A DNA stretch of 64,000 nt, from contig NW_027271844.1 of the NCBI RefSeq assembly GCF_040938485.1, forward strand, positions 434,001 to 498,000. The letters are read 5' to 3'. Each line of letters opens with the position of its first letter. Within the stretch, counting starts at the first letter, position 1. The translations under genes and the position numbers were made by a program. This DNA comes from Diadema antillarum (taxonomy: Eukaryota). Under the pieces are notes generated by a model. It was not told the origin of the DNA. It worked only from the letters and a program-made list of their open reading frames with translations, and searched no databases. Below, piece after piece: positions 3,165-56,576 of this stretch.

Positions 3165-6100
3165 CTTTGGGACAGAGAGAAAAAAAAATAATGGGAATGA
3201 AAGAGGGACAGAAGTGAAGGTGACTGGAATTCGGAAAGAGACAGAGAGAGAGATCGATCATAGGAATGTGATTATATAATCAATGACATCAAATGTCTGT
3301 GACCATGAAACAAATTTGTTCCTACCAAAATGACCTTAAATCGCTTCTATGGTCAAATGGTATATAGGTAGAAAGGGCAACGGATACCAAAAGTCGTTGC
3401 ATGCTATTTTTCTTTCTAATGTTTCGAAAATAACTGATATGTAGTTGCATGACACCAAATACAACACCACCCCTAAAATGGAGACCGTTTTATAATCATT
3501 GCTTTCCCAATGATGATAACGATAAACAAAAACTACTATCACCGTCGTTACTATTTCTAGTGCTCAAATCGTCTATACTATATCAGAATGTTGTTTTGTT
3601 TTGTCTTTTTATCATCTTTGCTAAAACAGTTTGCAAGGATATTCTTACAGTGTAGTTAGTCGGAATTAAGTTGAGAAGAACACTAGCCAGCAACGAATGA
3701 TTGTTTGAGTCGTCCCCGTAATGGAATCGAAGTTCTCTTTACCTGGCATAATGTGATTATACGTGGACAATGCCATCTTCTGGTAACCAGCTTGCTTGGT
3801 AATGGTAGCTAAGGCCATAGGTCTTTAATTGCTTTTCTCGTTGAAAACATGTTTTCACTTTAAACTTCTTTGAATTTCTTCACTCTATGAAACGCATGAA
3901 ACATTCTTCCGGATATATTGACTACCTACACAATGTCGTGATATCACGTTGCATATCTCAGATGTCGGCAAGAATCACTTTTCCCCCTTTCGAAAGTACT
4001 AGCTTTATGTATTATGGACAGAGACTATACCTCGAAGCATCTCTTAAATCTCCCTGCCGGAATGTTCGCGAGAAAAATAATGTTCAATGATATTATGTTA
4101 AGGTTAAAGGTAGTTTAAAGTGGGAAATCGAGTTTATGTCTCTGTATGAAGGGGCCTACACGTCTACCTGCACTTCTGTGAACACTCCTACGATGTAAGG
4201 CCCGACAATCCCGCCAAGTGTTCCAGCGGTGTTCATCATGCCCATAGCCGAACCCGCGTAGACTCCGGCTACGTCAAGCAGCGACACGAAGTGACCGGCA
4301 AAGGAAAAACCGATTCCGCCCATTGCCAGCGTGACGAATGCTACAGACATGCCGATGTTACAGCTGGCAAATCCGGTCAGTATGAGAAAGAAAGATCCAG
4401 AGAAAAACCCTGTCAGATAAAGAAGAACAAAGAGGAAATCTGCAAACAAAACGAAGTGATTTTTTTTTTTCGACGCGGTAATTCTGACGAGTGCCTCATG
4501 CAAACAGCGATAAAGCCTTAGAAAAAAAAAAGAGAGAAGAATCCTCAGGAAAAGAAGTGATAGGACTTCAGAGACCATAATGACATGAATGATATGCTTT
4601 ATTCAGACTTTGATGGAACCGTAATGATCGCCAGTATTGATGTTGTTGCTCTCTCTATCATAATAATTGCCATCTGGCTGTTGAATCCACTTCCTGCACG
4701 CTATAAAGGGAGTTGTATGTGGAAAAACCTTTGAAATTTAGGATGTATTTAGCTCTCTTTTCTGATCACAAATAGGTTAAAAACTGGACAGAAAGAATGA
4801 CTTCTGCAGAAAAACGTTATCATCATCTTGCTACTATTGAAGACCTCTTACTGTTATCATTAAAGGGGATGGCTAGTAACCGATCAGTGGGAATCAGTGG
4901 GAATGCTGAGGGTTGATTGTTCCAATCCTTGTGGGATTCATGTAAGAGTACATTACATATCTACTGTTGTGTGAAAATTATTTGCTTCAGAACGGTCTCA
5001 TATTCAAGTAATGTGCAGATTAATGCCCCGTCACTGACCAGGCACGCTACCCTGGAAACATTAAACTGCACATTACTTGAATATGAGACCATTCTGAAGC
5101 AAATAATTTTCACACAACAAGAGATATATAATGTACTCTTAAATGAATCCCACAAGCATTAGAACAATCATCCTCCAGCATTCCCACTGATTCCCACTGA
5201 TCAGTTACTAGCCATCCCCTTTAAGTCGTGACTTTGCCACAATCTGCACGAAGAATGTTATCGAGATATTTCTACAAATGCGTGGATATGGAGACTGGAC
5301 GGGGGAGACTGGCTGGACAACACTGAAAAGTCTTTTATCATTTGTATCATATCAAAGGGAATTCAGAACTATAATCTTACCAACAATGGTATCTCATATG
5401 CGGGGGGGGGGGGGGGGGACTGGGGGTTCGGGCCCCCCCCCCCTTTTTTTTTTGCACCATACAGAGGAATACATAAGGTGTCACCACTTTTGGCCCCACT
5501 TTTTTTTTCTTTTTTTTTCTTTTTTTTTTTACCCCGGCAGTGCGTAAGTGGCATTGGTAAGAAATAGATAAGGTTATGGTAAGGTAAGGTTATGTTGTTT
5601 TTTTTTGTGTGTGTTTTTTGCTTGTCAGCTAAAGAAACCCGGAAGTGGCATCAGAAGTTGCGCTGAAGGCCTTTTTTTTTTTTGGGGGGGGGGGCTTGTA
5701 AGCTCATGAACCAGGAAGTGCTAACCCCCCCCCCCCCCACACACACACACACACTTTTGTAAACGTTCTGCCGGCGGTGCCTCATTATATAAAGCCTATA
5801 TGTCTCAACGTATTGTCAGTAAGAAAAAATAGGATCATAGTCTACCTATTCCTGACATCAGTTTGCGAATAGCCGTCTTGCCAATGACTTCCCGCGCCAG
5901 AAGTCGGTCCGTTAGGTAGCTCGCTGCTATCATGACGACGAACTGAAGAATAAATGGAAGGGCCGAGTACACACCCGCCTGTGCAGAGTGAACCAAAGAG
6001 CAAAGATGTGTGATTACTACAGAAGTGTGACATTGCTTCATGTTTAGATCTACTTTGAAATCATGATAATCAAACAATAATGGTAGGAGCTTCATCAATA

Positions 6101-9100: not shown

Positions 9101-12100
9101 TATAATTATTACGTTGCTTGCCCGCACAAAGGCCACTATCGGCAAATTTGGTGTAACTAACTTTGCATTCGCGTTGCGCGATAGCGGCCTTGTGCGGGCT
9201 AGCAACGCGTCGTTAAGGCCGTGTCACACCTTTCCAGGCAAGCCTTCCTAACGACTTGGGAAGAACAATTTTTACAACCCGGAAGTCCCCGCAGATGACC
9301 CGCACATGACAGTACCTAACACGTAGTCGCCCGGAGGTGCGCACGTAAATCTTTTTACCCGCAACTATGTTTAGGCCCTGTCACACCTTTCCGGGCAAGT
9401 TACGCGGGCTTGTTGAGTGTAGGGATTTTTCAGCATACCGGACATTCCTGAGGGCGACAAGGATTTGAGCGAGTCACTGCATGTGTCCTACTTGTTGGAC
9501 GCGTTCTACTTTAAATTCTACTTGCGAGTATACTCTGTGACCTTTGTACCATTCGCGTGGGTGCTGACCACTCAGTAAAGGAATTCCTCGGAAGGAATGG
9601 TAGAAATCCCACAGAACGTTATTATCTTGGCTGCATACTGGACTGCGAAGTACTTGCGTGGGAGTTGCTTGCGAGGTGCTGCAGCTAAGGAACTCCTACT
9701 GGCGTTCTGCGTGGACCTCTCTGGGCATCCCCGCGACTCACCCGGAAAATTTTTGGTCATGCTCAAAGCTTGGCTGCGGTTATATCGGACTTGAGTGCGC
9801 ACCTACGGGCAACTACAGGCGAGATACGCGCTAGTTACTGTCAGGTGCGGACCAACTGCGGAGAGCTCCGTGTAGCAAATTCGTTTACCCGCAAGTCAAG
9901 CCGCAAAACTTCCCAGATGCAGCATGACAAGGCCTTGAGCATGTTCAAAACTTGTTCCGAGTGAGTTATGGGGTTTTGCTCGCAGAGGTACACGCAGAAC
10001 ACCAGTATGAGACCCTTACCAGCAGCACCTCGCAGGCACCTCCAACGCAGGTACATCTCAGTACCTGCAAGTCGCTCGTAACAGAAAACGGATCGCTTCC
10101 AAAGCTCTCACGCAGGTCACACGGAATACACGCAAGTAGAATGTAAGTAGTACGCGTCTAGTAGGTAGGAAACAGGTGCGAAACTCGCAAAATTTCTTGT
10201 CCGTCCGCGAAAATTTTCCTGCGCGCGGAAAATCACTCCTCGCAACAAGCCCGGTTAGCTTGCCCGGAAAGGTGTGACACGGCCTTAAGACTGGAAGGAA
10301 CTACTATACAAATAATGAATATATGAATGCAATCAAAGGCCGCAATGAACAGAATATTTCATGAGGTGAAATATGAAATGATCGATTCAACGAGACGGGT
10401 ATGGTATACCTGCGAATCCAATCACACTCAAGCTACTCCTTTCACTTGGATGCGCCCACTTGGACCACATTGCCAGCATCGATGGGAAAGACACACCCTG
10501 CAGAAAAAAAAAGGTTTACATCAAGGACTAAGAGCTCAGTCCTTCAACATGGTTGGAAAAAAAATAAAGCACATCAAGGCTGTTGTCTGCAACATCATAA
10601 CTAATCTGAGAAGGAGGTATTCCCTGAGTGATCTTCAGCGTATGATTTCGTATACAAATGCGTCTGTCGAAGATACATTAGATAAACTCGCTGCACGTAC
10701 TCAAAATAATCAATTAGTGACCGGGGCTCTAAATCTACCATGTGATTTGAAGCTATTGAATATCAGCGAATTTTTCACTCGGGATGTTTGAAGCTATTCG
10801 ATCGGGTTTGTCGAACCCTTGTTAAAGCAACAACAACAACAACAACAACAACAATCGACCAATAAAGCTCAACCTCGCCAAAGCCGCTAAAGAAGCGGGT
10901 CACGAAGTACCACCGGAAGTCTGTCATGGCTGCCACTGGACCTACGAGAGTGCAGACACTGGACAGAAGAAAACCGAAGCCCAAGACCCACTTCATGCCG
11001 TATTTGTCGGCGAGCCAGCCGCCGGGGATCTGGGTAAGGATGTATCCGTAGAAGAAGGCTGCAAACAACAGCTCCTGCGTGTGGGCGTCCCAGAGAAACT
11101 CGCCGTCTCCCTATAGAGATGCAACACAGAAAGTGTCACATGCGAGTAAAACAATGTGATATGCAAAAACACAAAATAAAAGCACATGATTGATACCCTA
11201 CTAGAAAACAATGTTCAAAAACAATGAAACTAAAATCATAGCTGACGAAATCGATCTGTAGGTGAAAATTAAGAGAGTAGATACATGGCTAGTAAATTAA
11301 GTCATGTCGTTATCAGAAGCATAAACCATCGTATGACCGAGAATTTACGAATATGCAATAGCGCTCTTACTTCTGTGGTTGACGTGTTATTAGTATCAGC
11401 ATTCTGTTGACATGTCTGAAATGTCTCTACGCTGCCGTTCCTTGAAACTTGTTGGGTGACGTAGGTGTCATTCACCATGGCTACCATGGCAACACTGACG
11501 TTTTGTCTCATGGCGCAAACAGCGGTCATTCCGACGAACACAATAATGCCCAGTTGGTGGCGGGTATGGATTGTTCCTGGAACTGCAAAGAAGAACAGCA
11601 AACACAAACAGACAAATAATTCAACCAAAAATGTTCCTGTGAGTGTAACTGAAAGTTAACTGTACAACACTGTAAAGCAATCTGGATGTAAAGAGGAAAT
11701 AAACGTCTGTGAGTGCGTAATTGTAAGAGTTTATATGTGTTTTTTTTTTTCGAATTCTGTGCAAAAAGCCTCAGTGAAAGTCCATTCGTGAGAATTATGT
11801 GTAAGAATGATAATATGTGTTGTTTTGTTGTTGCTTTTTCACACAGAATGATGCAGTTTGCAAGTACTTACTGATTTTTATTCATACCATATGGACTCTA
11901 TTTTCAACGCAGGGCGGTGAGTTGGCTCAGTCGGGAGTGCGTCTGCCTTTGACCCAAGCGACGGGTTCGATACCCGAGTCTGGACTGAGCAATGTTGTGT
12001 GTGATCATATCGTCCCCTCTAGCAAAAGGCAGAACACTCTGTTTCTCGGATAGGACATAAAATGGAGGCCCCGTGTGTGAGAGAGTCACAACTGTGATGG

Positions 12101-15100
12101 GTGTTTAACCCGGTGAAGTGGTCTCGCCTAACATCCAACTGGACTCCATGGAAGACTAGCTTAGTGCAGCTGAATATTTGCTATCCAGCCATCTTCTCAG
12201 ATGGAAAACAAACAAACAAACAAACGCATGACTCATGATTATTACATAACCTCCTTCCTGATGCCACGCAACCTGACACTTTCTACTACAGCAGATGGAA
12301 GCAAGATTACAATCCAGACTAATTTGATTCGCCTCAGGATCAGCTAATGGCCTCCCCACTTTTTACATCTCGAAACATTTTCCCTCATTTCCCTCACAGC
12401 CAGCATCGCCCAGAATTGGTCCACATTGGGTTACAAATTCCAGCCTTCCTATCCAAGCCCAAGCCATGCGCACGATGGGATTTCAGAAAAAAAGCTGATT
12501 GAGAAGGGTACACGCAAGAGGAGGAAGACTCGGTTCCTGGTCTCGCTCCAGTCTTTCTGCAGTATCCTGAAACAAGCGGCAAGGAAGTACATCCCTCAAG
12601 GTTTTCGGAAGACTAACACGAAATGGTAAGTCTGATGAGAACTGCTGGAGCTCACTGAATCAACGGAAGACCCCAGCATCGCCATTGAATTTCTTGCATC
12701 ACTAGGCACGGCAAGACGCCAAAGGTGGCAGGGAATGGTGGAAGATCTAAAATTTTCTCACTTCAGAAGAAAGGCTTGGAACCTTCTCCGTCACTTCGTG
12801 TGAGCCCCACCAGCCCCTCACCAGCCTCCTAAGGTGTCTGTGTTGTTGCCAACTTAAAGGTCTCTCTTCTCTAAGGCAGCTCGAAAGAATAATGTTGCTA
12901 AAGGCCTGTGAGAATCCTACTGACCTTGTCAACAGGCTTCTGGCTTTTGCTATCCCTACTCACTAGCATACATGGAGATTGGTCTGAAAGCCACCAAGTT
13001 AAGCAAAATGGCTGAAATCGATTGTATATCTACTCGGAGTTCCTTAAGAACATTGGCCGCAACGGACGCATTTTCCTGACATCCCCTTTCTCCTGTGCCC
13101 ATTCCACTGGAACAATATTCCCAAAAGCCTGGAGAGAGTTGAGGTCGGGGAAAGCTGCTTCAAACTGTACCAGCTACAGATCTATCTCGCTGATATTTAC
13201 AACTTTCAAATTGTTTGAACTACTCCTATTTGCCAGGTTCTCTCCTTTAAAGGAGCCGATCCTGCCGAGAGAAGAGGCAGGTTTCAGACCGGTAGGAACC
13301 GATGAAGTTCTAGTCCTATAAACCAGTAATGTCGAGGATGGCTTCCGACAAGGCTTGTTAACAGGTCTTGCCTTCACAGACCATAGACAATTTTGCGTTG
13401 CTTGTGTTCAATCCTCAGCAATCGCAGATTCAGGGTCACTCTAGGTAACCATGCAGTCCAGCTGTTTGAAGACTCTGAACCATGCTCCCCCCCCCCCCCC
13501 CCAGGATACTATATTAGCTTAACTCCAACTCTCAACAATATGTGAGTGGCATGCCTTGAAATCATCCAAGAAGCTTGCTAATGCAGATGACCTCGCCCTC
13601 ACATGTCAGAATAGATCCGTGGATGACGTACACCCGCCAAGACCTCATTACAATGGAGGAGTACTTTAACTTTTTGGAGACTTCGCCGCAACTCTTCAAA
13701 GACTACAGTCACTGCCTTCTGTCTAAGTCACCATCTTACCAACGCTAAACTCAAGGTAGCCTTCTGTGATAACTCTGACAATGAAGTACAGGGCGTTTCC
13801 CAAAAACCTTAGAACACTTGAAGAGACTTGCAGACAAACAGAAATATCGAGTCGACATCAACAGGAAAATCCATTTTGGTCTAAAAGCCAGTACTCCCTC
13901 TACTGCAGCACTAGCCCTCATTTATGGACTCGACTGCAGAGTACTGCTCATCTTCGTGGGCCTAGAGCTGCCACACGGAACGTGTCGATACGATCCTGAA
14001 CTCGGCCATGCGGGCAGTCTCAGGAACATTCAGGTCCACCCTCTTCACTGGCTTCCTGTTTTGTCACACATCCCCCCTCCCTACTAATGGTAGAAAAAAT
14101 GGCAAGGATCGCCAGTGCCGTCAATGCAGACCCAGACCTTCCAATCCACGATGACCTGAACAACCTCCTATCAATGGTCCGATGCAGTCTCCGATACTAC
14201 TAAAGTTACATGCAACATCATCATTGACCAGACAGCAGAGCTACGGGGGACTTCGACCTCCCTCGGAAAGAGTGGCTCGCCCTGAACCGCAACCAAATCC
14301 TCCATGACACAAACAGGCCACCGTCCACACCAATGGGGATCCTTAGATAGTCTGGCATGTGATTGCAGCCATCCCGACCAAATCTTGGGTCACATTGTGC
14401 ACAACTGCCACCGTCGCAAATTTTCCGGAGGGCTTGCATAAATTGCTAAACCAAGTGATGCTGCCCTGGACATGATCAGCAACTTGGACATTAACTTACA
14501 AGGATATGACCTCTCCTTTGTACGGTAGCATACGGCCGAAGAAGACTTTATGATTTGGATGAAATCTTGATCTATCTATACTCTATATTCATGAGTAGAA
14601 GAACTTTGTGGAATTGGAAAGTTATTTTGAAAGAGGAGGATTCACTTTATGACAACAAAGGAATAATTGTAAAAGATTTTTTTTTTAAAGTAAAATCTTG
14701 ATTTAAATCAAAAATATTGTGCATGCGTATGTCCTCATGCATGTCACGTAAACTTCTCGTGGAATACACAAAGAACATGCAGCATAAAAGAATGACTTCT
14801 TTTCGTCATGCTTGTAGTGAACACAGAAATGGAGTGAGCAATAAATTAACCCGTTCCGTACGGAATTGTGAAATTCCCATCAATAAACTTAATACACATG
14901 AGTAGTATATATATGTACCCGTATACACCCCGATGGAGCAGGCGGAGCAAGGGTGCTCCATCGTGATTTGAATATGCATGAGATGAGATCTTATAATGAA
15001 TATGCATGATATGACATCATACATGAATATGTATGATGTCATTATTTCCTGGTAAGGTTAGATAGCGTTAATAAGGGGGAAATGAACGCATCCTTCCGAC

Positions 15101-24300: not shown

Positions 24301-27300
24301 TTCTTTCTTTCTTCGTGTATGTAGGTCTAATCTAACGCAATAGATTCGAGTCATCTAAAACTTTTGAGTATTTTATTATTTATTTAGGCTACATCATGAT
24401 CCGTTATGCCTTAATAAACTTCAATGTTTTATATACATATTATGCAACATATCCTACTCATTCTACAATAATATGAACGAGCGATAATAAAGATCACTTT
24501 GATGCACGATACCTCATATACGAGGCTCCAGGCAACAACTTCGTGGAATGTTGCGTTACACTTTCACGAGAAGAAAAAAAAATCATCACTACAGCACATA
24601 CATATTAACGCGTAAAGCTCCCCACAACGCTCAACCTTTTTCAAAAACAACAGCAACAACAACGACAAATGTAGCCTCCACATCTCATAGTCACGGCGCT
24701 TGCAAAGGCTCCACCCTCATCTTCCTAACAAGAAAAACAACAATAACAAATGTAGCGCCCCACATCTCTGATAGCTTGTAAAGTCTCAATCCACCCTCAC
24801 CTTCAAAAAAAAAAGGAAAAGGATCCACCCTCAAATTCGTAATAAAAGACAACAACAACAAATGTGGCGCTCCACATCTCTGATAGCTTGTAAAGGCTCC
24901 ACCTTAACCTTCCTAATAAAAGACAACAACAACAACAAACGTAGCGCTCCACATCTCTCATAGCTTGTAAAGGCTCCACAAACGATGGATTTGCGTTCAT
25001 GGCAAGCTTATTTGCATATTCTCTGATAAATTATTGGCAATACTTTGGCCTCATGCATATGCATCAGGCTCCACAACTAGAACTCTCACCCTTCCTCTAT
25101 TAAAGAAACAAACTAAACATAACGCTCCACACGTCACAGTCACAGCGCTAAAGGCTCCACGCTCACTTCCCTTTTAAAAAAGTCAACAACAAGCTAATTT
25201 GCATATTCACTGATAAATCATCGGCAATACTATGGCCTCATGCATACTTATGCATCAGGCTCCACAGATAAATCTCTCAACTTTCCTCTAAGAAACAGAA
25301 TAAATGTAACACTCCACATGGCATAGTCACAGCGGTAAATGCTCCACGCTTACTTTCCTAAAACAAGCAAACAAACTAAACAAAAACTAAGTGTAGCGCT
25401 CCACATCTGATAGTCACGGCACTTGTAAAGGCTCCACGAAATGATGGATTTGCGTTTATGGAAAGCTAATTTGCATATTTACTGATAAATCATTGGCGAT
25501 ACTATGGCCTCATGCATATGTATCAGGCTCCACAGCTAGAACTCTCACCCTTCCTCTGATGCTCCACAACACGTGTCATAGTCACAATTCTAAAGGCTCC
25601 ACGCTCACTTTCCTTAAGAAAAGTCAATAACAATAACAACATCAAAGGTAGTGCTCCACATCTCATGGTCGCATTGCTTGCCGAGGCTCCACACAACCAC
25701 CATTCACATTCATTGCACGCTGATTTGCATATTTACGAAAACATCATTAGAGATACTATGAACTCATGCATACTCAATAAGGCTTTACATATAGTTTACT
25801 CCCCCTTTCCTCAACAAACGAAATCCATGTCACATCGCTTGCCACACGCAAGGCTCCACTCTATGATAGATTCACAACCGTGGCACACTGATTTACATAG
25901 TCGAGAATTAATCAACAGCGACATCATGACCGCGTATATATTCACTGTTTTGAAGCAAGCATTTCCTAAAATGTACGCACCACTAAAAAACAAGAATAAT
26001 CTGCGACGAATATCATATCAAAATACTCGTGCAATGGACGGCTGAAAACATCAAGCTTTCATAATCTTGTCGGAAGGATGCGTTCATTTCCCCCTTCATA
26101 CATATTCATGTATGATGTAATATCATGTATATTCATTATATGACCTAATCTCATGCATATTCAAATCACGGTGGAGCACCCTTGCTCCGCCTGCTCCACC
26201 GGGGTGTATATGGGTACATATATATACTACTCATATGCCACCAGGTTCCCGAATGGAATGGGATAAGATGTACCTATACCATATTACAGAACATGCATTG
26301 TGTGTAAACTTGGGTGAGAGAGAGAGAGGCAGAGAGAGAGAGAAAGATGGAGGAACCGAGAGAAGGGGTGTGTGTGTGTGTGTGTGTGTGTTTGTGTGCG
26401 TTTGTATGTGTACGTACTTTGCAAACATGGAAATGATACTGTCAGTGACGCTAGGACAGTCCAGATAGCATTGATTACTCAACCGGGATGGAAGAGGTAA
26501 GCTTAAGGTCAACGAGCAAGAGTCTGCGTGTAAATGCGTCGGAAAGCCTTTTCGAAACGGTACGTTTATCAATTATCCTTTTCTCGGCAGAAACAGGTTT
26601 TCCAAACAGCTTTCAAGGAATATTTACGAGTTGATAAACGCAAAGCTGTTTTGAAAGCCCTTTCGGAAAGCCTTTTCGAAAGCCGCAAATTTGTGGCTTT
26701 CCAAACAGGTTTACTAAACAGGTTTCCAGAAACCTGTTTGTAAAAGCCTTTTGAAGTTGATATACGCAAAGCTGTTTTGAAACGGCTTTGTAGTATTGTA
26801 CTGCAGTTACGAACAATGCACGCCTTATATGACCTCTTCTCCTCGGGTCGAATTGCGCAATGCAGCTGTGCAGTGACAGGCCAAGAGTTGATAAACGCAA
26901 CTATTTTGGAATCCGTTTCTGAAGGGCATTGGAAACGGCTTTCGAAAGGGTTTTGGAAACGGCTTTTGAAAGCCGTTTAAACAGGGGAAAGTTGATAAAC
27001 GCAGCCAAAGTCTCATGCCGCCACTCAGAAATATTTCATGCCGTCAATCCCTCGTTTGAGGCGAGTCCCCAACCGGGGTGTACCCAAAGTGGGGTGCGTA
27101 TATTTGTCGTTTGGGAGTTGGGAGTCGAAGTACTTGTCCCAGGGAGGTGGAAGAAACGGCCCTGCTTGTCCATTGCAAATAAACTTTCTGCTCAGGCGTG
27201 ACAAACCTGGAGGCCAAGCCAGGGTTTGATGACTCCAGCAGCTGTCGTATTACGTAAGAGCATGATAAGGATATCTGCCTGTGGCAGACCATTCAAAGTG

Positions 27301-30300
27301 AACTCAATTTTCTCTATCCTTTTTAAAGTTTTCAATTTTATATTCTATTGAGAAATTCTATGGTCATCCATTTTACATTTCGAACGAAAAAAATTGACCC
27401 GTAAATAACGAAAATACAGGAATAAGAAGGAGAGCATTGCCAGTTTGCCGGTGCTATTTGGCAGTGAGTTACAACGGGGAGGTGAGACTACTCCCTGGTT
27501 ATTACAATCAGCCTGCTGACTGGATCGTTGAGAAAGCAGCTGTCGTATTACGTAAGAGCATGATAAGGATATCTGCCTGTGGCAGACCATTCAAAGTGAA
27601 CTCAATTTTCTCTATCCTTTCTAAAGTTTTCAATTTTATATTCTATTGAGAAATTCTATGGTCATCCATTTTACATTTCGAACGAAAAAAATTGACCCGT
27701 AAATAACGAAAATACAGGAATAAGAAGGAGAGCATTGCCAGTTTGCCGGTGCTGACAATGTGCTATTTGGCAGTGAGTTACAACGGGGAGGTGAGACTAC
27801 CTCCCTGGTTACAATCAGCCTGCTGACTGGATCATTGAGAAAGAGAGAGAGAGGGAGAGAGAGAGAGGGGGAGAGCGAGAGGGAGAGAGGGAGGGAGAGG
27901 GGGGAGAGATGGGGGAGGGAGAAGGGGAGAGCAAAATGGAATGACAATAGTTCCGGTCACTACAGTACAGGCATGCTCTGTCTGCATACGCTGAATGTCT
28001 ACACTCACACACACACACGTACACACACACACACGCACCATGGAGCTACATGGCCCATGCCAAAACCAAAACAATCTCCTCCTCTCGCGGTGCCCCCCCC
28101 CCCCTCCTGTGGCGCTGTGGCGATGACTGATGCTTAGATTAGGCCAGGGTCAAGAAACAGGTGTTTTATATCTTTGACTTTAAGTCATTGATTGCCAAGA
28201 TATGCACTGGCATTATTTACTGGGGTGTAGCCTCTTCAAACGAGAGATTTGCGTCATGTGAAGTATGTGCTAAACTGGAGCTGCCTCACAGATAGGAAGA
28301 CAATGTGGCATTGCATCATGGCTCGTCACTCTCAATGGAAGATATGTCTTTATGATGGTAATTGCTTTTCGCCGTCCCTTCTTAGAAAACAAGCGGCACA
28401 TTAATAGTACAGGGCTTTGGAAAGGGCTTTGGAAAGGGCTTTGGGAAGCCGTTTAAACAGGGGAAAGTTGATAAACGCAGCCATAGAGGTCAAGGTGAGT
28501 TCGTGGGAAATTACCGGTTTGTTTACTTCCTGAAAACATTTTGAAGGCGAGTTCGTGGGAAATTACCGGTTTGTTTAATCCCTGAAAACGTTTTGAAGAC
28601 GTTGCATGCGTTGCGTACAGATGGTGCAAAATAGCTCGTATAGCTTTCGTTGCGTTGTAAGAGAGAGCAAGACGTCATATATGTGGCAGTGTTGTCAGCT
28701 GCATCGGTGTGGTCTGATTCTAGCTATATCAGTCAACTTACTGGACAAGTAAGCGTTGTATGCACAAGTGAAATGATCGATAGGGGAGCCCGCATGCTGC
28801 CGACGATAGTATCAATTGTAATATAGACACATGTATATCCTAATGACGAGTTGATTATGAACACGAGCATACAACATTTATACAATGACTACCGGGAAAT
28901 TTCTTACAGGATTATCTAAACGTAGAACTTATCATTTATCTTGCCCTGCCATAATAGCATACTACGGTAGTTCATCGTTATTCGTTCTTTCTTGGTGGCT
29001 CTTCAAAGAGTCTTTGGTTTACCAAGGGGGAAGTTTGGGCAGATGATGGTATCAATAAGCAAATACAGATGAAAGTGCATGTCGGGATGACTAGTTGATG
29101 AGGAGCAAAAGCCTACAACATTTTCATCCGACGCGTGCCGCAACGTATAAACCATTTCGATATGTGGTGCAATGATATAGCGATGTCAAGGTTGAGCCAA
29201 ACACTGCGCGATATTGAGAGGATGTCATTGTAATTGATTGTTTGCCTATGTAAAACGCTGTGCAATATGCTCGTAATTAGGTCTTGAGCTCACCAAGAAA
29301 TAAAGGATATCATATCGTGTCAGGCGCGTGCCGCTGACTTTAGAATAGAGAGCAATAAGTGAACTTTGGGCCATTTTTTTTTTTTTTTTTTGCTAGGTCA
29401 ACCACTGGCTACGATTCGATGGGGAATTGAGAGTCACTTCGAGGGCGGGTATTTTCTTTCTCTCTGCATGTGCGCGTAGTGTGTGTGTGGCAACATTGTA
29501 ACTTCTAGGTATAACAGAACAAGTATTTCAAAGCGTACAATTAATAATCATATTAAAAAACCTAACGTTTGATCCGAATTTAGTAACTCTCGCTGATGAT
29601 AAAACGAATATTCCATTGGATGACGAAAACGCATTGAAGTCTCAGCGACCAATAATAATCTAATACTATAGACTCAACCTTACGTACTGGTCTATCATTT
29701 TAACGTTGTATCACACGAACCAATGTCACCGGTCTCCTGGGTGTCGATGTAGAATAGTTTCAAAAAGATGATATTCGCCCTGTAACGACGTTTTAGATTG
29801 CTGTCAACGCGCCTTTACAAGTCCAATTTATTTTTTTTTTACAGGAACTGGGGCGTATAATAGAAACATGTTGTAAGAATCGGTCTAATGAGAGTTGCCA
29901 AGACGGCGGAAAAACTGAAAAACCTGTTGCAATCATGATCATTGTAAAATCACAAGTTCATGTCACAGAGGTTGTTTATAAAACAATTTGAGCGGAATAT
30001 TTGAATACTGAATTTACTCACGAGGCGTATGTTTTGTAACGTATATATAGCTATGTATACCATTATGATGGCGCCATGATTTTTTGCACAAGTTAAACAT
30101 GAAGAAAAAGTTTACATGAGATGGCCGGAAGCCTCTTGTTACATGATTGTGTATGCCTTGTTTTCAATCGGCGGCAGATTCAATATACAGTATATGCATG
30201 AGAGCCATTTTGTGGCATGCAGAGTTCGTGATTATACGGGTGCACGTCACGAGACCGACACCCACGAGTCATACAGCCCACAAGTCATACAGCTCACAAG

Positions 30301-31811
30301 TCATACAGCCCACGAGTCACACAGCTCGCAAGTCATACAGCCCACTAGTTATACAGCCCACGAGTTCGACATCAAGCAAAATAAGCCCACGAGTTATACT
30401 GTTATACAGCCCATGAGTTCGACACTACACACAAAAGGCTCACGAGACCGACACTATGCAAACAAAGCCCACGAGACCGACACTACGCTTAAAAGGTCCA
30501 CGAGACCGACACTAGGCAAACAAAGCTCACGAGATCGACACTAGGCAAAAGAGGCTCACGAGACCGACACTAGGCAAAGAAGGCCCACGAGACCGGCAGG
30601 ATGAACAGCGCCATCTACATGTCAATTACCTGTACAGGGTGTTCCATGAAGGGGAAAATTACACAGGCCCTAATGGTGGGTGTAATTTCGTCACGCTATC
30701 GAGCAAGAGATTGTAACTAATTGAACAGCACCATAGTTTCACTTTAGTGAAGTTTGGAAAAATTAAAAAGTCCGCTCAAAAGTCATGCATTTCTAAAGTT
30801 TTTGTGCTTCCATCGCTACATGACAAGACTAACAACAGTTCGCGACTTTACTGTGTGCAGAATAATGATAAACAAAATCAACAAAATGTATTCTTAATGA
30901 AATGAACACATTTTCTCTAATTGTTACTGATATATCAGGTTAAGGATAATATCATTCTTTCCACTGTATGAAAGAGGAAAGTGAAATGTTCTTACATTGT
31001 GTCACAAAAATGAAAAGGTTGAATTCTCTTCATATTTTTACTATGTTTTTCACATTGTACTTCATGTAAGTATCTTTTTCATATTTACAACACTCATCGT
31101 TTCCAAGTAAAATATTATTAATAGGCGCATGTTCTTTCTGAGAATATGCCGTCTAGCCATAATTGGAATCTTAATTCTTTTATAATGGATGTTGGAATGC
31201 TAATACACATCTAGACTTTCTTGCGTTGTCTTAAAAAAAGGGGGGGGGAAGTTGCATGGAATTTGAATATCCTATAAATTCGTTGTAGTTGACTTGTAGA
31301 GTTCTTCATGAATCCAAATACATAAAGGCCTATTTAATATGGCGTCACCTCTTTAAAGGAGNNNNNNNNNNNNNNNNNNNNNNNNNNNNNNNNNNNNNNN
31401 NNNNNNNNNNNNNNNNNNNNNNNNNNNNNNNNNNNNNNNNNNNNNNNNNNNNNNNNNNNNNNNNNNNNNNNNNNNNNNNNNNNNNNNNNNNNNNNNNNNN
31501 NNNNNTAAGCTCAGGTTGTAAACTACTCATGGTGCAGTCGTCACTTCTATAGAAAAAAGAGATCAATGGGCAAGGATTATGCGAAAGTCAAAACTAAGGA
31601 AACGTAAACCAAGCTTGTCTGGAGATAACTCACTTTTCTTTTCACCAATAAGCGGATCGGTCTCTCTCCCAGTCACATCGGAATGCAGCGACTCTTTCGA
31701 TGACTTTCTGAGGCCCATCGTGTTCGACATCGAAGGATATCTCGAAGGCACTGATGTCGAGGACGACGTCAGGGAGTCAGCCGAAGTCAAAGTTTCGTAG
31801 TTCTTCACCAT
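2967..31811 (-). CDS. SLC17A5-like: Sialin-like SLC17 family MFS anion transporter, 10 coding exons, 1689 nt / 562 aa
   Basis: Exons on minus strand: 31811-31610, 11582-11371, 11110-10874, 10497-10410, 8950-8855, 7551-7427, 6780-6625, 5978-5846, 4409-4168, 3164-2967. All junctions are GT-AG and phases add up. SLC17 motifs: [69 protein letters not shown]. Orthology within SLC17 not determined; the link of the first exon is less certain than the rest. Confidence 0.92.
4168..4409 (-). CDS. SLC17 exon 9
   Basis: TATCTGACAG acceptor, [13 protein letters not shown]...[44 protein letters not shown] donor. Confidence 0.94.
4864..5220. mobile_element. Hairpin MITE, Kolobok/T2-type (TTAA TSD, AGG...CCT ends)
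   Basis: TTAA|AGGGGATGGCTAGTAAC...GTTACTAGCCATCCCCT|TTAA; almost entirely self-complementary. Confidence 0.88.
5846..5978 (-). CDS. SLC17 exon 8
   Basis: TCTGCACAG acceptor, [50 protein letters not shown] donor. Confidence 0.93.
6245..6455. mobile_element. ~210-bp MITE with internal telomere-like CCCTAA hexamers (family copies at ~50330-50562 and 52331-52550)
   Basis: TIR GACATTTGCT(A/C)CTG(A/C)GACAATT ... AATTGTCGCAGGAGCAAATGTC; internal CCCTAATCCTAA-like runs shared by all three copies. Confidence 0.72.
6625..6780 (-). CDS. SLC17 exon 7
   Basis: TTTTGGTTAG acceptor, [18 protein letters not shown]...[22 protein letters not shown] donor. Confidence 0.93.
7427..7551 (-). CDS. SLC17 exon 6
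   Basis: CACTGCAG acceptor, [48 protein letters not shown] donor. Confidence 0.9.
8590..8800. repeat. Hairpin copy of the CATACAGCCC subrepeat family
   Basis: CATACAGCCCATGAGTTCGACA forward and GTGTCGAACTCATGGGCTGTATG reverse. Confidence 0.65.
8855..8950 (-). CDS. SLC17 exon 5
   Basis: TTTGTACCAG acceptor, [38 protein letters not shown] donor. Confidence 0.93.
9217..10284. mobile_element. PIF/Harbinger-like MITE with two left ends
   Basis: TIR GGCC(G/C)TGTCACACCTTTCC at 9217 and again at 9374; right TIR GGAAAGGTGTGACACGGCC ends at 10284. The inner element 9374-10284 has a TTA/TTA TSD. Internal inverted repeats. Confidence 0.78.
10410..10497 (-). CDS. SLC17 exon 4
   Basis: TTTTCTGCAG acceptor, [35 protein letters not shown] donor. 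Confidence 0.93.
10874..11110 (-). CDS. SLC17 exon 3
   Basis: CTCTATAG acceptor, [38 protein letters not shown]...FSGFGE, GTTGAG donor. Confidence 0.95.
11371..11582 (-). CDS. SLC17 exon 2 (TM1 and glycosylated luminal loop)
   Basis: TTCTTTGCAG acceptor, [39 protein letters not shown]...TTE, GTAAGA donor. Confidence 0.93.
11912..12222 (+). mobile_element. tRNA-derived SINE
   Basis: Pol III A box TGGCTCAGTCGG (11923-11934), B box GGTTCGATACC (11964-11974), (CAAA)n tail, flanking AACGCA duplication (11906-11911 and 12223-12228). Confidence 0.8.
12250..14544 (+). mobile_element. Degenerate non-LTR retrotransposon (Ingi/Vingi-like APE-RT) relic
   Basis: Frameshifted remnants: [10 protein letters not shown] (endonuclease), SYRSISL...FKLFE...[10 protein letters not shown] (RT), [14 protein letters not shown]-terminal CDC...HIVHNC knuckle, 3' end CATACGGCCGAAGAAG. 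Clade assigned from recalled motif similarity. Confidence 0.78.
14901..26231. mobile_element. 11.3-kb palindromic non-autonomous element with Polinton/Maverick-like termini
   Basis: Starts AGTAGTATATATATGTACCC, ends GGGTACATATATATACTACT; flanks CACATG (14895-14900) and CATATG (26232-26237). Arms 14901-20595 and 20620-26231 are reverse complements with scattered substitutions and indels. No credible ORF. The palindrome is directly visible; the Polinton class is inferred from the ends and the TSD. Confidence 0.8.
26559..27005. mobile_element. Probable Harbinger-like MITE with GAAAGCC/GGAAAC subrepeats; its right end is repeated at ~28410-28482
   Basis: Left CGTTTATCAATT, right GGGAAAGTTGATAAACGCAGCC; the same right end recurs at 28450-28482. 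Confidence 0.5.
27238..27843. repeat. Tandem duplication, two ~298-bp near-identical units
   Basis: GCAGCTGTCGTATTACG starts at 27238 and 27536; copy 2 carries an extra GACAATGTGCT. Confidence 0.92.
28497..28600. repeat. Two-unit ~52-bp tandem repeat
   Basis: GAGTTCGTGGGAAATTACCGGTTTGTTTA...CCTGAAAAC.TTTTGAAG twice. Confidence 0.85.
30240..30600. repeat. Short-period subrepeat array (CACGAGTCATACAGCC / CACGAGACCGACACT), interspersed family shared with 8590-8800
   Basis: Tandem 15-35-bp units; the same units, including TGCACGTCACGA, occur in both orientations at 8590-8800. Confidence 0.72.
31362..31505. other. Assembly gap (N run)
   Basis: Ns; preceded by TTAA|AGGAG and followed by TAA, so it may hide a Kolobok-type MITE. 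Confidence 0.99.
31610..31811 (-). CDS. SLC17 gene probable first coding exon (Ser-rich cytosolic N-tail with ETDPLI dileucine-type motif)
   Basis: MVKNYET...[20 protein letters not shown] then G|GTTTAC donor in phase 1, matching the phase-1 acceptor at 11582. ETDPLI fits [DE]xxxL[LI], like sialin DRTPLL. An acceptor (CTCATAACAG) just before the ATG implies a further 5' UTR exon. Confidence 0.72.
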
Positions 31812-33797: not shown

Positions 33798-34719
33798 GTG
33801 AGTGGATTTCCACACTCTCTTCCTTTCTCTTTTATCCCTTACCGCTAGCAGATATTATGCGAGTAAGTAAATAATTATATATTATATATACAGTGCGAGA
33901 AGAAGATCATTCATGGACGTAGTTAGTGATCAACGTGTGTGTTTATTGCCGAGCTTTCGGTCTCGTTCGGACCTTCATCAGGGCTGTAATGATACAAAAA
34001 TGACTCACTCGTATGGCTACACTCGTAACAATATAAATCTAACTAGCGTGAGTCTATAATGACTATGTCATCAATGAATCCGTAATCATATAACAGAATA
34101 CAATAATAATATACATAATCAATTTCATATTATTGAATACATTTCATATGAAGGTCCGAACGAGACCGAAAGCTCGGCAATAAACACACACGTTGATCAC
34201 TAGCTACGTCCACGAATGCTCTTCTTCTCGCACTGAATATAAATAATGAAAGAGCTACACTGGTGCTGTAAATGGNNNNNNNNNNNNNNNNNNNNNNNNN
34301 NNNNNNNNNNNNNNNNNNNNNNNNNNNNNNNNNNNNNNNNNNNNNNNNNNNNNNNNNNNNNNNNNNNNNNNNNNNNNNNNNNNNNNNNNNNNNNNNNNNN
34401 NNNNNNNNNNNNNNNNNNNNNNNNNNNNNNNNNNNNNNNCTTAGTCTTATTTATAATGCATTTTATAACGTGCTATAATGCCCCTCCTCGGCAAACATAG
34501 CCACACAGTATCACATAAAACGCCTCGCTTTACAAGCATTGTAAATGCAAGTTCCACCTCGCGTGAATTTGTATATGGGAGAAGAGAACTATGTATTCCC
34601 TACCAATGAATTTATGACGAGAATCACTAAAGCTGCAAAAAATATATAGATGCTGTAGAATATGCATACATTCACGTAAATGTATAGACATATACTGAGT
34701 ATGTGTATCATATACATGT

Positions 34720-38900: not shown

Positions 38901-41900
38901 TTAATTGTGTTGCAAGACTATGAGAGCACTTATTCTCACCTGTATTTTGAACTAATTATCCTCAGACTCGGTTAAAAACATTTTTCTGTTTTCAAATTTC
39001 TGTCAGGTGTCTACAGTAATCTGGCAAATGAAGGAGACAGTCGTCCTGAAGAAGATGCCGCCGAAGAACCACGCCACAGCAAACTCACAGAATACATCAC
39101 GCTTATTGAGCATCGTGCGATGGCGGACTACTCAGACTTGGATTTGACTGGCAATACGGCAAAGGGTAGATTCGTAGTTATTCAAAGAAAAATAAACAAA
39201 AAGAATAAGCAAAATAAAAGATGAATAGAGGAAAGGGAGTACGTCAGTAAAATATGACATTATCAAAACTGCTTGGACTTTACTTTGTAACAGATATAAG
39301 TCACAGAACTGGGAGTGAAATGTTACAAAATAAAATGGCAAATTGACAGCAACATTTTGCTTCTCTCAACATTTTGCAACAGCAACAGCACCACTTCTCT
39401 CAGATCATACTTATCAAAGGAGTGGTCACGTGACGTACAACTATTGTGATAATAGAATAAATAGTAAAGTAATACTTATTGATCGTGTATTGTTCTTATC
39501 ATTCCTTCGCACATTTTTTCTTATTCATCAGTTTATATGACAAAAGTCTATATAAAAAAAAAATGAATTTGATTTGTTGATTATGTTTCATAACTTATCG
39601 TCTAGACGGTGTCGGCGCCCTGCGTACACATCAAGATGAGACAAACGTAGTGATCTTTGTCTGCGATTACCCGTAAGTCCAACCCTTTAATCAGTTGACC
39701 CCTTTCAGCAAATTTTAACTATTGATTGCATGAGTGCTACTTCATAATGATTTAGTTTATCTGTTCACCGTCAGTCACACAAGGTTTGAAAGTGGATATG
39801 ATATCATACAACTTTTCATGATCCTCGATTTTGTAAAGTTTTTATCTCGCTATTAGTTAAGTAAAGTCACGATGTTACTGTCAATGCAGGTCCACAATAA
39901 ATAGATAAAATCTATCTATTCTCCGTCAATCCCAACAGATTTGAAAGTAGATACGATAATCATACAACCTTTCATGATTCTGGATTTTGTGAAGTTTTTA
40001 TCTTGATATTAGTTAAGTGAAGTCCCCATATTACTATCAATGCAGGTCCACATTCAAAGATGAGGATCAAGTACTTTCTATTCGAAAAGTGATGGACAAA
40101 CTGCGTGAAATTTACGGTAAGCTTGGAACTCATTTGTCTTCATCGTTTAACGAGTATCAAGCCTTGACACCACTTCAATTGTTACTTCAATTTACTTCAA
40201 TTGATGTCTTTATTGTTTTATGTCACCCTTAGATATATCACCAATTTTTACCGATTTGTGGTGATAAATCCTAAGGACAACATCCAACAATGGCATGCAA
40301 ACAAACACACACACAAGCACATAATCCCAATTATGTTAAAACTTATCTCGTTACGTTTGGCCTGATTGATAGTTTGAGAACTATCAATGAATATCAAGAC
40401 GTGAAACGAACTAATAAAGGCTTGTTTTGCAGGTTCTTTAACCCTATTAGTAGAGCAGTTAAGCCCTCAAAATCACGTGAATTGTGCAAAATTTGACTAA
40501 AGCATGAAACTTTCACCAGTGTTAGTACATACCATAAGATTTATTTTAAGATCGGGAGGTAAGTCTGATTTGACCTCTGATGACCTCCAGAGGTCAATGT
40601 ACTTTAGATATCAGAAAATCGATGTTTTTAGACATTTGTGAATGATATATGTGGTTATGTTGCTCTAAACATGCATTTATACCACAGAGAAATCATTTCC
40701 AGATTCAACAGAGCACTGACAGGTTTTTACCTTTGACCTCTGATGACCTCCATTACCAGAGGTCACTGAACTTTAAATATCAAAATATCGATGTTCTGAG
40801 ACATTTGTGAATGATATATGTGGTTATGATTCACTAAACATGCATCTATACTTCAGGGAAACCATTTTCTGATTCCACAGAGCATTGACAGGTTTTAACC
40901 TTTGACCTCTGATGACCTTTGGAGGTCAATGACCTCAAAATATTATATCGATCTGTGATGTCATTGGTTATAATGGTAACCATTGTTAAGATGTACAAAA
41001 CAAGCATATCTGTCTTACCATGAAATTGTTTTCATATTCTAAAGAGCAGACAGGTTTCTACCTTTGACCTCTGATGACCTTGAGAGGTCAATGACCTCAG
41101 AATATCAGAATATTGAACTATGACATCATTGGTGAAAGGTCAAACATGGTAAAGATGTACAAAACAAGCATATCTGTGTACAATGACATCGTCTTCATAT
41201 TCCAAGGCACACAGACGAGTTTCTGCCTTTGACCTCTGGTGATCTCGAGAGGTCAATGACCTCAAAGTATCAGAATAGTTTGGCATCATCAATGGTAAAC
41301 ATGATGATGTTCAGGAGAGCACTCGTAGGCCCTGCTTATTAACGAGCCATTACCTTTCACCTATGAAAATCACACAAGGTCAAATACCTCTAATGAAATG
41401 TGAGGATGTTAATATTGATATTGCGATAGTTAATACAGTATAGTTAATAATTGTTTATAATGTAGGGCTTACAAACCATGCATTTCTGTTACTAAAAAAG
41501 TGGCTACTCATTCCGCAGAACTTTTCAGGTAATTATCTAAGTCGGGTATGTGCACTGAGCAAGGGGTGTCGATCTGTTTTCACGTGGGGGGGGGGGGGAC
41601 TTGGAAATATGTAAAAGCATAAGTTCATGGTGCAAAGGAATGAAGCGGAGGGGCAGGGGGAGGGTGTGGGTGGGGGATTGGATTTTTGCAGGTTTAGACC
41701 TGAAATCAGTGATTCAGTGTAGCTCTTGTTTAATGTGTGCGTCATCACTTATACGGAAGTTGATGGGGTGTGGGCGCATCTCACCTACCCCCCTCCCAAA
41801 GACGAAGTTTTTGATTTTTTTTTTTTAGAATCTGATGCATACGTTTTGGGGAATATTTGGAAAATTATGGATCGCCAAAGTGTACCAAGTCTATATGGAT

Positions 41901-44900: not shown

Positions 44901-46416
44901 GTAGGTCTCGGATGGCAATAGCTAGTTGCAATACACAGGATTGCTTCATGTGGAATGCTTGTTGCGCCTCACAGTATGTCGAAGTTTTCAGGATGGTCCA
45001 TGATGTCGCAGCTGTGGACTGTATACTCCAGGACCATGAGTCATTCATCGCAGTCATACTGTAACAACCCACCAGCTTAACACTGGCCAATACAGGCCCA
45101 CCAGCTGGAAACTATGCAAATATTGCCCATGAGCTTGACACTTAGGCAAACTAGTAACATAATGAGTCCGACAAATGGGGGAAAAGATCTATGAGACTTA
45201 CACTGAATAGATTAAACACTCTGTATATCAGTCTCGTGGGCCTTGTTTTCCTCGAGTGTTGAGATAATGGCCATATTTGCCTATATTTGCTAGTCTACAT
45301 AACTAACCCAAACATAACAGTCATATTTGAGGTCACTGCCATCACTCAAGAAACTTAAGCTTTATTTCTGAAGTAATTGACCTCTCACATTTCAGAGACC
45401 TGTTACTATAAACCAATGCTCTGTGGAATATGCATACATACTTTGATCAAAACGTCAATGCGTGATTTGTACATGATTAAGCATTTACGATTAAACCAAT
45501 GAAGCCAAACATCAATACAGGTAAGCCTACACATATTCTGATATTCTAAAAGCTCAGTGATCTCTCATTGTCCTGAGAGGTCAAAGTTGGATATGATGCA
45601 CAGGCTAATGACCAATGTCCATGGAATGACAAGATTCTTCTATTATAGCATAAATGATGGTACATCGGGTATAAGTTGACCATTGACTATACATAGAATA
45701 TCAATATTCTGATATTTTGAGGTCATTGACCTGTCACCTTCCTCAGAGGTCAAAGGTAGAGACACGTGAGTAATTTCTATTGCTCTGTGGAATAGAATAG
45801 GAAAACAATTCAATTGTAATACAAATGAATAAAACATCTATATCATGTTTATCATCAACCAATTGCACCAAATATCAATGTTCTGACATTTTGAGGTCAT
45901 TGACCTCATCATAGGTCATCTGAGGTCATCAGAGGTCAAAGGTAGAAATCTGACTCGAAAGGCTCAGTGGAACATTAAGGCAATTCCTCTTACAAAAATT
46001 AGTTTTTAGTACATAATTTTCGTGTTTCAGTTATGAGTGACGCATTAAAATATCAATTTTCTGACATTTTGAGGTCATTGACCTCTGGAGGTCATCAGAG
46101 GTCAAAGGTAGAAACCTGTCAGGGCTCTGTGGAACATAAAGACAATTTCACTGTGACAAAAATTAAGTTTTAGTACATCATTACTGTGTTTATCATTAAC
46201 CAATGGCGCAAAATATCAACTTTCTTAGATTTTGAGGTCATCGACCTCTAGAGGTCATCAGAGGTCAATTCAGACTTACCTCCTTACTTAAAATTAATCT
46301 TATAGCATGTACTAACAATGGTGAAAGTTTCATGCTTTAGTCAAATTTTGCACAATTCTTCGGCTTATCTGCTCTACTATATTAAGCCCAAGCTATTTTG
46401 ACCCCTCACAGGCCCA

Positions 46417-47838: not shown

Positions 47839-47922
47839 ATTTTTAGGACCATTCATCTAAGACCAGACATGCCAGCTTTTAGAGGTTCATTCACTTCTGC
47901 TGATGAGCATGACAAACATTAA

Positions 47923-48487
47923 AGGACAGGTCCACCTCCATATACATATAAGGACTGAGAGAATGCAGCAATATTAGTAGAACACATCAGTGAAAGTTTG
48001 AGGAAAATAGAACAATCCGTTCAAAAGTTACGAATATTTTGGTATCTGCGCAGTCACTGCTGAAATAGGAGACTACTATACAACAGTGTATGATGTCACA
48101 TGCGTACAACTGTATAAGGAAAATAAAAAGAGAATTTCACAAAACTTTACTTTTTGAATAAAGTGCACATTTCTTTGACTTGCTACTGACGTATGTCAAG
48201 GGTAATATTATTCCCCCTGCCTTCTGAAAGAGAGAAGTCGAGTGTTTTTTTGTTATGCAAGAAAAGTGGAAATATGTTGAATTTTCTTTATTCTTTCTTT
48301 ATATCGTTGTACTCATGTAACATCACAAGCTATAGTAGTCTTTTCATCCAGCAGTGACTGAGCAGAAACTTCAAAAATTCATAACTTTTTAACGGATTGT
48401 CCGATTTTGCTCAAACTCTCACTGATGTGTTCTACTAATATTGCTGCATTCACTCAATCCACATGTCTATGAAGGTGAACTTGTCCT
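47923..48487. mobile_element. MITE, Kolobok/T2-type
   Basis: TTAA|AGGACA...TGTCCT|TGAA with long TIR (GAATGCAGCAATATTAGTAGAACACATCAGTGA and its reverse complement). Confidence 0.82.
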
Positions 48488-49142
48488 TGAAGGAGCCCTG
48501 CACACATTTCTCCTCACAATATAATTATGTACTGTACGTTTGATGTATTTCATCACCACCAGCCTGCTGCATTCTGTTTCATTTTTTTCTTGTTGTCACA
48601 TCTTAATGGGTAAAAGACACCCAAAAAAACCCCACCTAAAATATCGCGTTGGCTCTACAGTAAACAACCGATAGGCATGACTTCGTCGTAGATTAAATAC
48701 AAGTGGTATCGTTCTGTGAGAGGCACACACACGGTAATTAAAAGGGGAATTCCATAATGTTGCTTTCCACGAATGATTTATCAATTTCATTTCTTCTCCC
48801 CAGAAAATTTTCTTCAGACCTGTTCTTAGTATGTTATATTATGTGTAATGCCCTTTCGTGTGTCCTTCTCCGTCAGTTCAGAAATATTTGAGAGAAATGA
48901 AATTATTGAAATTTTGTGTGCAAACCGAATTTAGAGCTGCTGTAGATACCAGAGAGTTGTCGATTTGTCGTATACTCTCTAAACTTTTCCATTTCGTAAT
49001 TTTATGATTTATGATTTTTCCCAATATTGTCAGATTTACGTTTCTTGTTTTCCGTTTTCATGCAAAGCCACGCAATATCAGGATAGAATTTCCCTGTAAA
49101 AGTTGTGTGTATAGAATCTGTAAGCACCACACATTATGTTAA

Positions 49143-56362: not shown

Positions 56363-56576
56363 ATTGCAAAGTTGTACCCGTAAAGGTACTACAATATTGT
56401 GTCACATATAAAGGTGCGAAGTTGAACCTTTGCATCTGAGAGAATGAATTGTTATAGATATTGAATGAAGAGGAGCATGTCTTGACTACAATCTATTGAA
56501 CGGGTTAAGAGAAACAAACGTACCGCAAGCTGGAAAAGGGATGATGTTAATTACAAGGTTAAAAAGGGGCCTGATT

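Follow-up and report, generated by a model that had tools for sequence, protein, structure and literature searches.

A gene-less palindrome of 11,331 bp lies in a 64,000-nucleotide stretch of the Diadema antillarum genome (NCBI RefSeq assembly GCF_040938485.1, contig NW_027271844.1, positions 434,001 to 498,000 of the forward strand), which is called the window here and numbered from its first letter. The palindrome is probably the non-coding downstream end of a Polinton (Maverick) derivative that has a polymerase as its only gene, copied back on itself. The copying likely took place during extrachromosomal protein-primed replication, and a complete Polinton likely supplied the integrase that inserted the product.

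Structure of the palindrome

The element proper occupies positions 14901-26231. It is flanked by the 6-mers CACATG (14895-14900, plus strand) and CATATG (26232-26237, plus strand), both of which were taken in by the range of 14895-26237 given in the original prediction, made by a model from the letters of the window. The left terminus AGTAGTATATATATGTACC (14901-14919, plus strand) carries (AGT)2, the Polinton end motif described in excerpts of PMC8097293. The right terminus GGTACATATATATACTACT (26213-26231, minus strand) is the reverse complement of the left one.

The left arm and the right arm (20620-26231, minus strand) are separated by a 24-nt centre (20596-20619). With the 6-mers included, the arms are 5701 and 5618 nt long, and their alignment has 5157 matches, 233 mismatches (95.7% identity) and 45 gaps, five of which span 24-129 nt. 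The centre can also be read as a 14-nt loop (20601-20614), if GAGGC/GCCAT is counted as arm with two mismatches. Arm identity is even, with 96.9% in the outer, 95.9% in the middle and 96.6% in the inner part, and one block of subrepeats is rearranged between the arms (15801-16214). Rfam searches at the centre returned hairpin-type matches only, all under the gathering score.

Each arm consists of two diverged copies (~74%) of one module that resembles a terminal inverted repeat (TIR) and is made of 74-296-bp subrepeats. In the left arm, the outer module (14901-18479, plus strand) is homologous to the TIR and the downstream (polymerase 3') end of the polymerase-bearing relatives described below. 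At a TTCCA junction (18475-18479, plus strand) the arm exits this downstream interior and re-enters a TIR subrepeat, and the inner module (18480-20595, plus strand) is a second inner-TIR copy, ~74% identical. The TTCCA jump predates the fold, because it was found in both arms, in the allele and in the unfolded relative C4.

No coding capacity was detected. Searches by tblastn with 20 Polinton proteins of the same genome gave zero matches inside the element, whether to pPolB, rve integrase, capsid, protease or ATPase. Six of its stop-to-stop frames of at least 100 aa were scanned against Pfam: five had no family at E<=0.01, and the sixth had two matches, both under the curated cut-off.

The insertion split a host interspersed repeat (14846-14900, plus strand), which continues from 26238. 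At 487 other copies of this repeat, the matching empty site has one 6-mer, and among the matches listed (the first 100) it is exactly CACATG in five. The target site duplication (TSD) is therefore exactly 6 bp long, with one later change in the right copy that is common to both haplotypes. The termini and flanking 6-mers, the two reverse-complement arms 24 nt apart and the lack of coding capacity had all been put forward in the original prediction and were recovered here; it had also anticipated an empty site with a single 6-mer, which these paralogous repeat copies provided.

Second haplotype

A second haplotig, C278, has flanks that are 99% identical and agrees with the window in both 6-mers, in the centre and in the differences specific to each arm. 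Because the other haplotype has the element with the same centre, the palindrome is not a mis-assembly, and it was confirmed as genuine. C278 is without ~3.2 kb of one arm (~22340-25500 in the right arm of the window), and the loss lies between subrepeats. Over 1.6 kb, 25 arm-versus-arm differences are fixed in both haplotypes; an outgroup split them into 11 and 14, and only two sites in this region look like arm-to-arm conversion. Arm divergence over the 1.6 kb is 3.4% versus 1.1% between the haplotypes (left arm), and the arms are therefore older than the haplotype split. The right junction, with a 37-nt deletion in the right arm, was also found in contigs of two public runs from two studies, one of which is perhaps the assembly source. 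Among the contigs of public runs, none bridged the centre. No RNA run was listed among those with the sequence, which carries no information on expression.

The two haplotypes also differ elsewhere in the same intron, by presence or absence of sequence at window positions 27036-28256 (~1.2 kb) and at L031 4159-5107 (~0.95 kb).

Polymerase-only relatives

With the first 506 nt of the element as query, pairs of ends 15-16 kb apart were found at many loci, 20 of which were examined on both sides. These elements have a single gene that spans two frames, one an exon with C2H2 zinc fingers and the other a frame of ~1300 aa for the polymerase. They measure 11-22 kb where both ends were found, with TIRs of 1.25-5.06 kb. 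AGTAGT ends and perfect 6-bp duplications were present in 17 of the 20 loci; one of the remaining three is an inverted duplicate of another, and two are without resolvable ends. Integrase, capsid and ATPase gave no match in any of the 20, while control loci gave matches, and beyond the zinc-finger exon and pPolB these relatives showed no further conserved frame of at least 130-150 aa. Three loci have a decayed protease fragment in their TIRs.

In the one pPolB that was checked, the exonuclease, polymerase and putative vOTU motifs are intact, and there is a VSR-like insert. The protein itself had no PF03175 match; its homologues carry this family, including a Lytechinus pictus protein that is 69% identical and has the same fingers. 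Echinoderm homologues also come from Apostichopus, Amphiura and Holothuria. A structure model of its first 800 residues matched adenovirus, adintovirus and bidnavirus-like polymerases. An N-terminal folded domain was predicted as well, and no structural match named it as a PRD1-type terminal protein. In a viral contig collection, the zinc-finger pPolB had no relatives.

Compared with these elements, the window element shows 76-88% identity in the terminal 150-500 nt, and along the TIR the figure is 70-82%. Its arm extends past the TIR into sequence that is found only downstream of the polymerase, and this holds for both arms. With complete Polintons, it has only AGTAGTATA in common.

Some loci of this tier are themselves rearranged. 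The zinc-finger/pPolB element C481:3733215-3748284 (L118, L119) has a second AGTAGT terminus 1.18 kb inside both TIRs, and its outer duplication is AGTCAT. At C120:811384-811414 and 1153279-1153309, the terminal 12 nt AGTAGTATATAT are repeated at one end in a slide-back-like manner; the two C120 copies look like one inverted duplication that includes flanking sequence. In C1208 and C1617 (L066-L069), decayed zinc-finger/pPolB fragments cluster among Gypsy-like frames.

Fold point

A search with the inner module returned C4 (allele C1526), a decayed unfolded relative that is 88-95% like the arm. C4 reads CAACCATT GAGGC GAGTGTTTGGAAGT GCTT and then continues for more than 1 kb past the axis. The right arm of the window element, read inward, tracks C4 through the loop as far as GGAAGTGC, from which point it copies back along the arm. 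The 24-nt centre, read from the right arm, is contiguous parent sequence up to the fold-back join, where 2 bases match exactly, or 4 if one G-T pair is allowed.

A second, younger case was read against a much closer parent. The palindrome C91 (6062 bp, 3 mismatches in 3002, TSD AACGAT) has a parent that is 98-99% identical. It tracks this parent through a natural TTTTT-GT..ACC-AAAAA repeat and then copies back, and of five diagnostic differences, four show the downstream state in both arms. In the window element (compared with relatives at 70-80%) and in C91 (compared with its parent), both arms derive from one parental end. The centres of C49 and two centres of C646 also map as a loop followed by copying back on gene-bearing parents. 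Of 12 small elements, two showed no axis; for 7 of the 10 centres that were located, none of the loci examined was a clear parent.

The proposal that one Polinton end had been copied back stood in that the centre is a copy-back junction; the direct parent was found in the polymerase-only tier and not among the complete Polintons.

Palindromes elsewhere in the genome

Two end-pattern searches returned 49 and 95 termini, five of them in common, and the reversed controls returned none. A loose end pattern had fewer matches than its control and was discarded. Nineteen gene-less or truncated elements were tabulated, 17 with perfect 6-bp duplications and two with inverted flanks. Besides the window element there are six clean whole palindromes (C91, C209, C894, C142b, C554 and C2044), 0.46-13.4 kb in length, with spacers of 23-61 nt and perfect 6-bp duplications.

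C209, C894, C778 and C64 are 92-99% alike and have related centres in unrelated flanks; the 41-nt centre is identical in C209 and C778. A 32-nt centre is common to C1109 and C1417, and a related one was found in C142b, C554 and C64b. Related or identical centres thus recur at unrelated flanks, and these palindromes were therefore inserted as such at new sites. One module is absent from both arms of C894. In 1.4 kb, the two arms differ at 1 position in C894 and at 3 in C778, versus 5-9 between copies, and the arms of C209 differ at 9. The genome holds several small palindrome families of separate origins, with a readable unfolded parent and fold point.

Both Polintons with matching termini and further palindromic copies with other 6-bp TSDs had been forecast from the window, and both are present. 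Mobility of the palindromes, which had been suggested for the class as a whole, was seen in two families other than that of the window copy.

Inverted flanks are not always an artefact, as C64b and C646 lie within larger inverted repeats. The palindrome C614:1-17335 (L116, L117) is probably an assembly artefact: its axis lies inside the polymerase frame, and the host flanks are inverted to the contig start, with no duplication. Nested palindromes with embedded termini, and palindromes within palindromes, were seen in C646, C1417, C144, C849 and C299 (L196-L204, L225, L226). C209:1160624-1174043 (L053, L054) is a mosaic. Its arms have only the first 86 nt (100%) in common with one polymerase-only subfamily, and they contain decayed polymerase sequence of the complete Polinton type.

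Complete Polintons and integration

Complete Polintons, which carry integrase, capsids, protease and ATPase, were reached by a search with PF03175. The ends were resolved for three that carry the rve integrase, and all three have AGTAGT ends and 6-bp duplications, with lengths of 17-18 kb and TIRs of 400-659 bp. A pattern fitting the end of one complete-Polinton family gave 98 termini. Chimeras with one end from this family and the other from a polymerase-only subfamily were found at C395, C1320, C66 (two) and C1109. Because all five have perfect duplications, both end types were taken by one integration reaction. The chimeras point to an integrase common to complete Polintons and the polymerase-only tier, and the complete Polintons are likely the integrase donors for the palindrome. 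The reaction seen in the chimeras would be that of this integrase, and it would act on the end type of the window element as well. They also suggest that the integrase requires little beyond the terminal bases.

Genome family searches with capsid PF21738 and ATPase PF04665 gave 0 matches despite the complete Polintons present; they were too insensitive and were not used. C41-type loci, considered as a second polymerase-only family, were ruled out, as C193 and C211 hold that polymerase within complete gene blocks. At C948:966000-1000304 (L166-L169), two inverted complete Polinton gene blocks of at least 12 kb each, ~99% alike, lie 10.7 kb apart.

Zinc fingers and GTGGAG repeats

The left arm contains 40 GTGGAGC repeats, all on one strand, and ten ATGCAAAT octamers (15309-19950, plus strand), and the right arm has the mirror image of this arrangement. 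GTGGAGC is absent from the remaining 52.7 kb of the window. We take the octamers, ten per arm, to resemble the Oct-1 site of the adenovirus origin and regard this role as putative.

In the nearest parents, finger 2 has R-1, D2, S3 and R6, and finger 1 has N3 and R6. Under what we assume to be the C2H2 recognition code, this finger pair predicts G(T/C)G-GA-N. The GTGGAGC repeats fit as predicted binding sites of the zinc-finger pair of the parent. Six subfamilies with the helix R-D-S-R have 23-31 GTGGAG per TIR, and the window arm has 43. Five subfamilies with N at finger 2 position 3 have 0-1 GTGGAG and carry repeats of CAGGAT, GAGGAT, CAGGAG or GAGGG instead, in lower numbers. At the level of sequence, motif and finger change together across subfamilies; since the subfamilies are related, the finger-motif matches are not independent trials. 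The match bears on how a Polinton polymerase finds its own origin.

Proposed mechanism and alternatives

In the mechanism that we favour, protein-primed strand displacement would replicate a free linear copy, starting at its AGTAGT ends. A free 3' end would fold back on a few bases, prime itself and be extended to the terminus, which makes a hairpin. Primed once more at AGTAGT, synthesis would run round this hairpin and yield a linear duplex palindrome with two identical ends, which the integrase of a complete Polinton would then insert. Zinc fingers on the parent polymerase may bind the GTGGAG repeats and in this way choose the templates that are copied. After insertion, the arms would have drifted apart neutrally, and one haplotype would have lost 3.2 kb of one arm between subrepeats.

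A wider scheme of three tiers is plausible, and we advance it tentatively. Complete Polintons would give the integrase, and polymerase-only satellites would copy themselves with a pPolB whose N-terminal zinc fingers recognise a repeat, specific to the subfamily, in their own giant TIRs. Gene-less snap-back palindromes, which arose repeatedly from these satellites, would double the site array (40 per arm in the window element) and spread as integrated defective-interfering parasites of the satellites.

Several points weigh against the copy-back mechanism and its helper. No intact parent of the element's own subfamily was found, and the nearest gene-bearing elements are 70-82% alike. The far end of C4 was not found either, and no stable hairpin was predicted for the weak fold-back stem of the window element. 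One of the C91 diagnostic sites is in the upstream state, in both arms. The TIRs of relatives reach 5 kb, and the TIR of C708:54627-69210 (L112, L113), at 5.06 kb, includes the 3' part of the polymerase gene; very long TIRs therefore arise without a fold. The window copy is known from one locus only, and its own movement after folding is therefore putative. The chimeras were tested only for the C18-type end, a sister of the end type of the window element. In C211, a zinc-finger pPolB is fused to a full Polinton gene block, which means that the tiers recombine. The finger-motif match depends on an assumed recognition code, and the subfamilies in which it was seen are related. C96, which differs in finger 1 and for which no ends were resolved, combines R-D-S-R in finger 2 with a single GTGGAG.

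The palindrome could also have formed inside the chromosome, if a break in an integrated element was followed by fold-back repair synthesis that later switched to the far TIR. The product would be local and never a free replicon, and we consider this origin unlikely. The single locus agrees with it, the junction signature would be the same as under copying back of a free replicon, and the arm indels and the rearranged block 15801-16214 could be differences between two original TIRs. However, divergence is even along the arm (96.9, 95.9 and 96.6%), and when set against the outgroup the arm-fixed changes fall about equally on the two arms (11 and 14); both patterns are those of an arm copied whole in a single event. 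Other palindromes, moreover, have common centres at unrelated sites, each with its own duplication.

Still less probable is an internal deletion in an element whose TIRs had outgrown 5.7 kb by end-to-end conversion, the arms being the old TIRs. Under a uniform model, ~0.8% of pairs of independent breakpoints would coincide in TIR position to within 24 nt, although a cut across a panhandle stem would also yield a short spacer. TIR length does vary among relatives (1.25-5.06 kb), TIR growth is described for linear plasmids in excerpts of PMC3673629, and plain deletion derivatives occur in this genome (C798, C61 and C929). Yet C91, for which the parent is known, has both arms from the same end, and all seven whole palindromes have spacers of at most 61 nt.

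A modular foldback transposon of the sea urchin TU or Mutator-like kind, moved by a DDE transposase, is very improbable. Long modular subrepeat TIRs, the lack of coding sequence and the sea urchin host recall such elements, and foldbacks from sea urchin are reported in excerpts of PMC4079207, but the duplication is 6 bp here versus 8-10 bp in the foldback of the excerpted text, the ends are (AGT)2, and the gene-bearing relatives encode pPolB. An assembly artefact from fold-back chimeric reads, as which C614 appears, is just as improbable for an element whose arms are 4% apart with indels, whose flanks are direct and not inverted, and for which there are a second haplotig with the same centre and arm-specific differences and a right junction with the 37-nt deletion in the public contigs.

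Comparison with known systems

Animal Polintons/Mavericks have an (AGT)2//(ACT)2 or (AG)3 end motif, and vertebrate Maverick TIRs measure 46-1447 bp, according to excerpts of Barreat and Katzourakis 2021 (PMC8097293). The window element is like them in its (AGT)2//(ACT)2 ends, its 6-bp duplication and its size, which is in their range, and complete members are present in the same genome. It is unlike them in being gene-less and in having an inverted repeat that is the whole element (5.7 kb versus 46-1447 bp). Its parent tier differs in having the zinc-finger/pPolB gene only, whereas an autonomous Polinton is defined by pPolB and integrase in the excerpted text of PMC5499653.

Snap-back defective genomes of AAV, as excerpted from PMC8235507, likewise have one end duplicated in inverted form, a short loop and a need for helper functions. 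Unlike these, the window element is a germ-line insertion flanked by a target duplication, and its ends are of the protein-primed type and not hairpin ITRs. Adenovirus forms defective genomes that are palindromes of its left end. A hairpin plasmid derivative exists for pGKL1, and Vierula and Bertrand reportedly described a hairpin or palindromic deletion derivative of the kalilo plasmid in 1992. In both plasmid cases, as here, a pPolB replicon gives rise to a hairpin and a palindromic duplex from one end. The kalilo and pGKL1 replicons are cytoplasmic or mitochondrial plasmids, whereas the replicon here would be nuclear, Polinton-derived and inserted with an integrase-type duplication. Long modular inverted repeats without coding sequence are also known from foldback elements (Drosophila FB/Tetris and sea urchin TU; excerpts of PMC4079207). 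These differ in duplication length, in lacking Polinton ends and in lacking pPolB-bearing parents.

Only integrase-linked pPolB genes were counted in the excerpted text of Jeong et al. (10.1101/2023.08.22.554363), and a polymerase-only tier would therefore escape that count. In the open-licence literature, with Repbase outside its scope, no description of palindromic or polymerase-only Polintons was found. Repbase lists non-autonomous Polintons. New in this analysis are the position of the fold, the parent tier that has a polymerase only, and the evidence for a helper.

Models of Polinton replication are drawn from sequence, and the strand-displacement intermediates that they propose are difficult to observe. 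In viruses and linear plasmids, such replication yields snap-back products, and integrated copies with readable parents and fold points are indirect evidence of free protein-primed replication in an animal germ line. For the host, palindromes are unstable DNA, and 3.2 kb of one arm have already been lost in one haplotype.

Other features of the window

By homology, the element sits in intron 1 of a sialin-like (SLC17) gene, in agreement with the predicted location. Exon 1 (31626-31811, minus strand), on the far side of the element, matched the N-terminus of a sea urchin homologue (E 3e-8), and exon 2 lies at 11371-11585 (minus strand, upper boundary approximate). One exon of the gene is 100% identical to a Diadema antillarum protein.

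Short inverted-repeat elements, MITE-like or foldback-like, were seen at 4860-5224, 9370-10288, 33880-34245, 47919-48491 and 55884-58018. Inverted arrays of ~165-175-bp units, 66-78% alike, occupy 40448-41277 and 45694-46379. A gene for a secretin-family 7TM receptor lies at 56577-60694 (minus strand); its first frame is long, at 843 aa.

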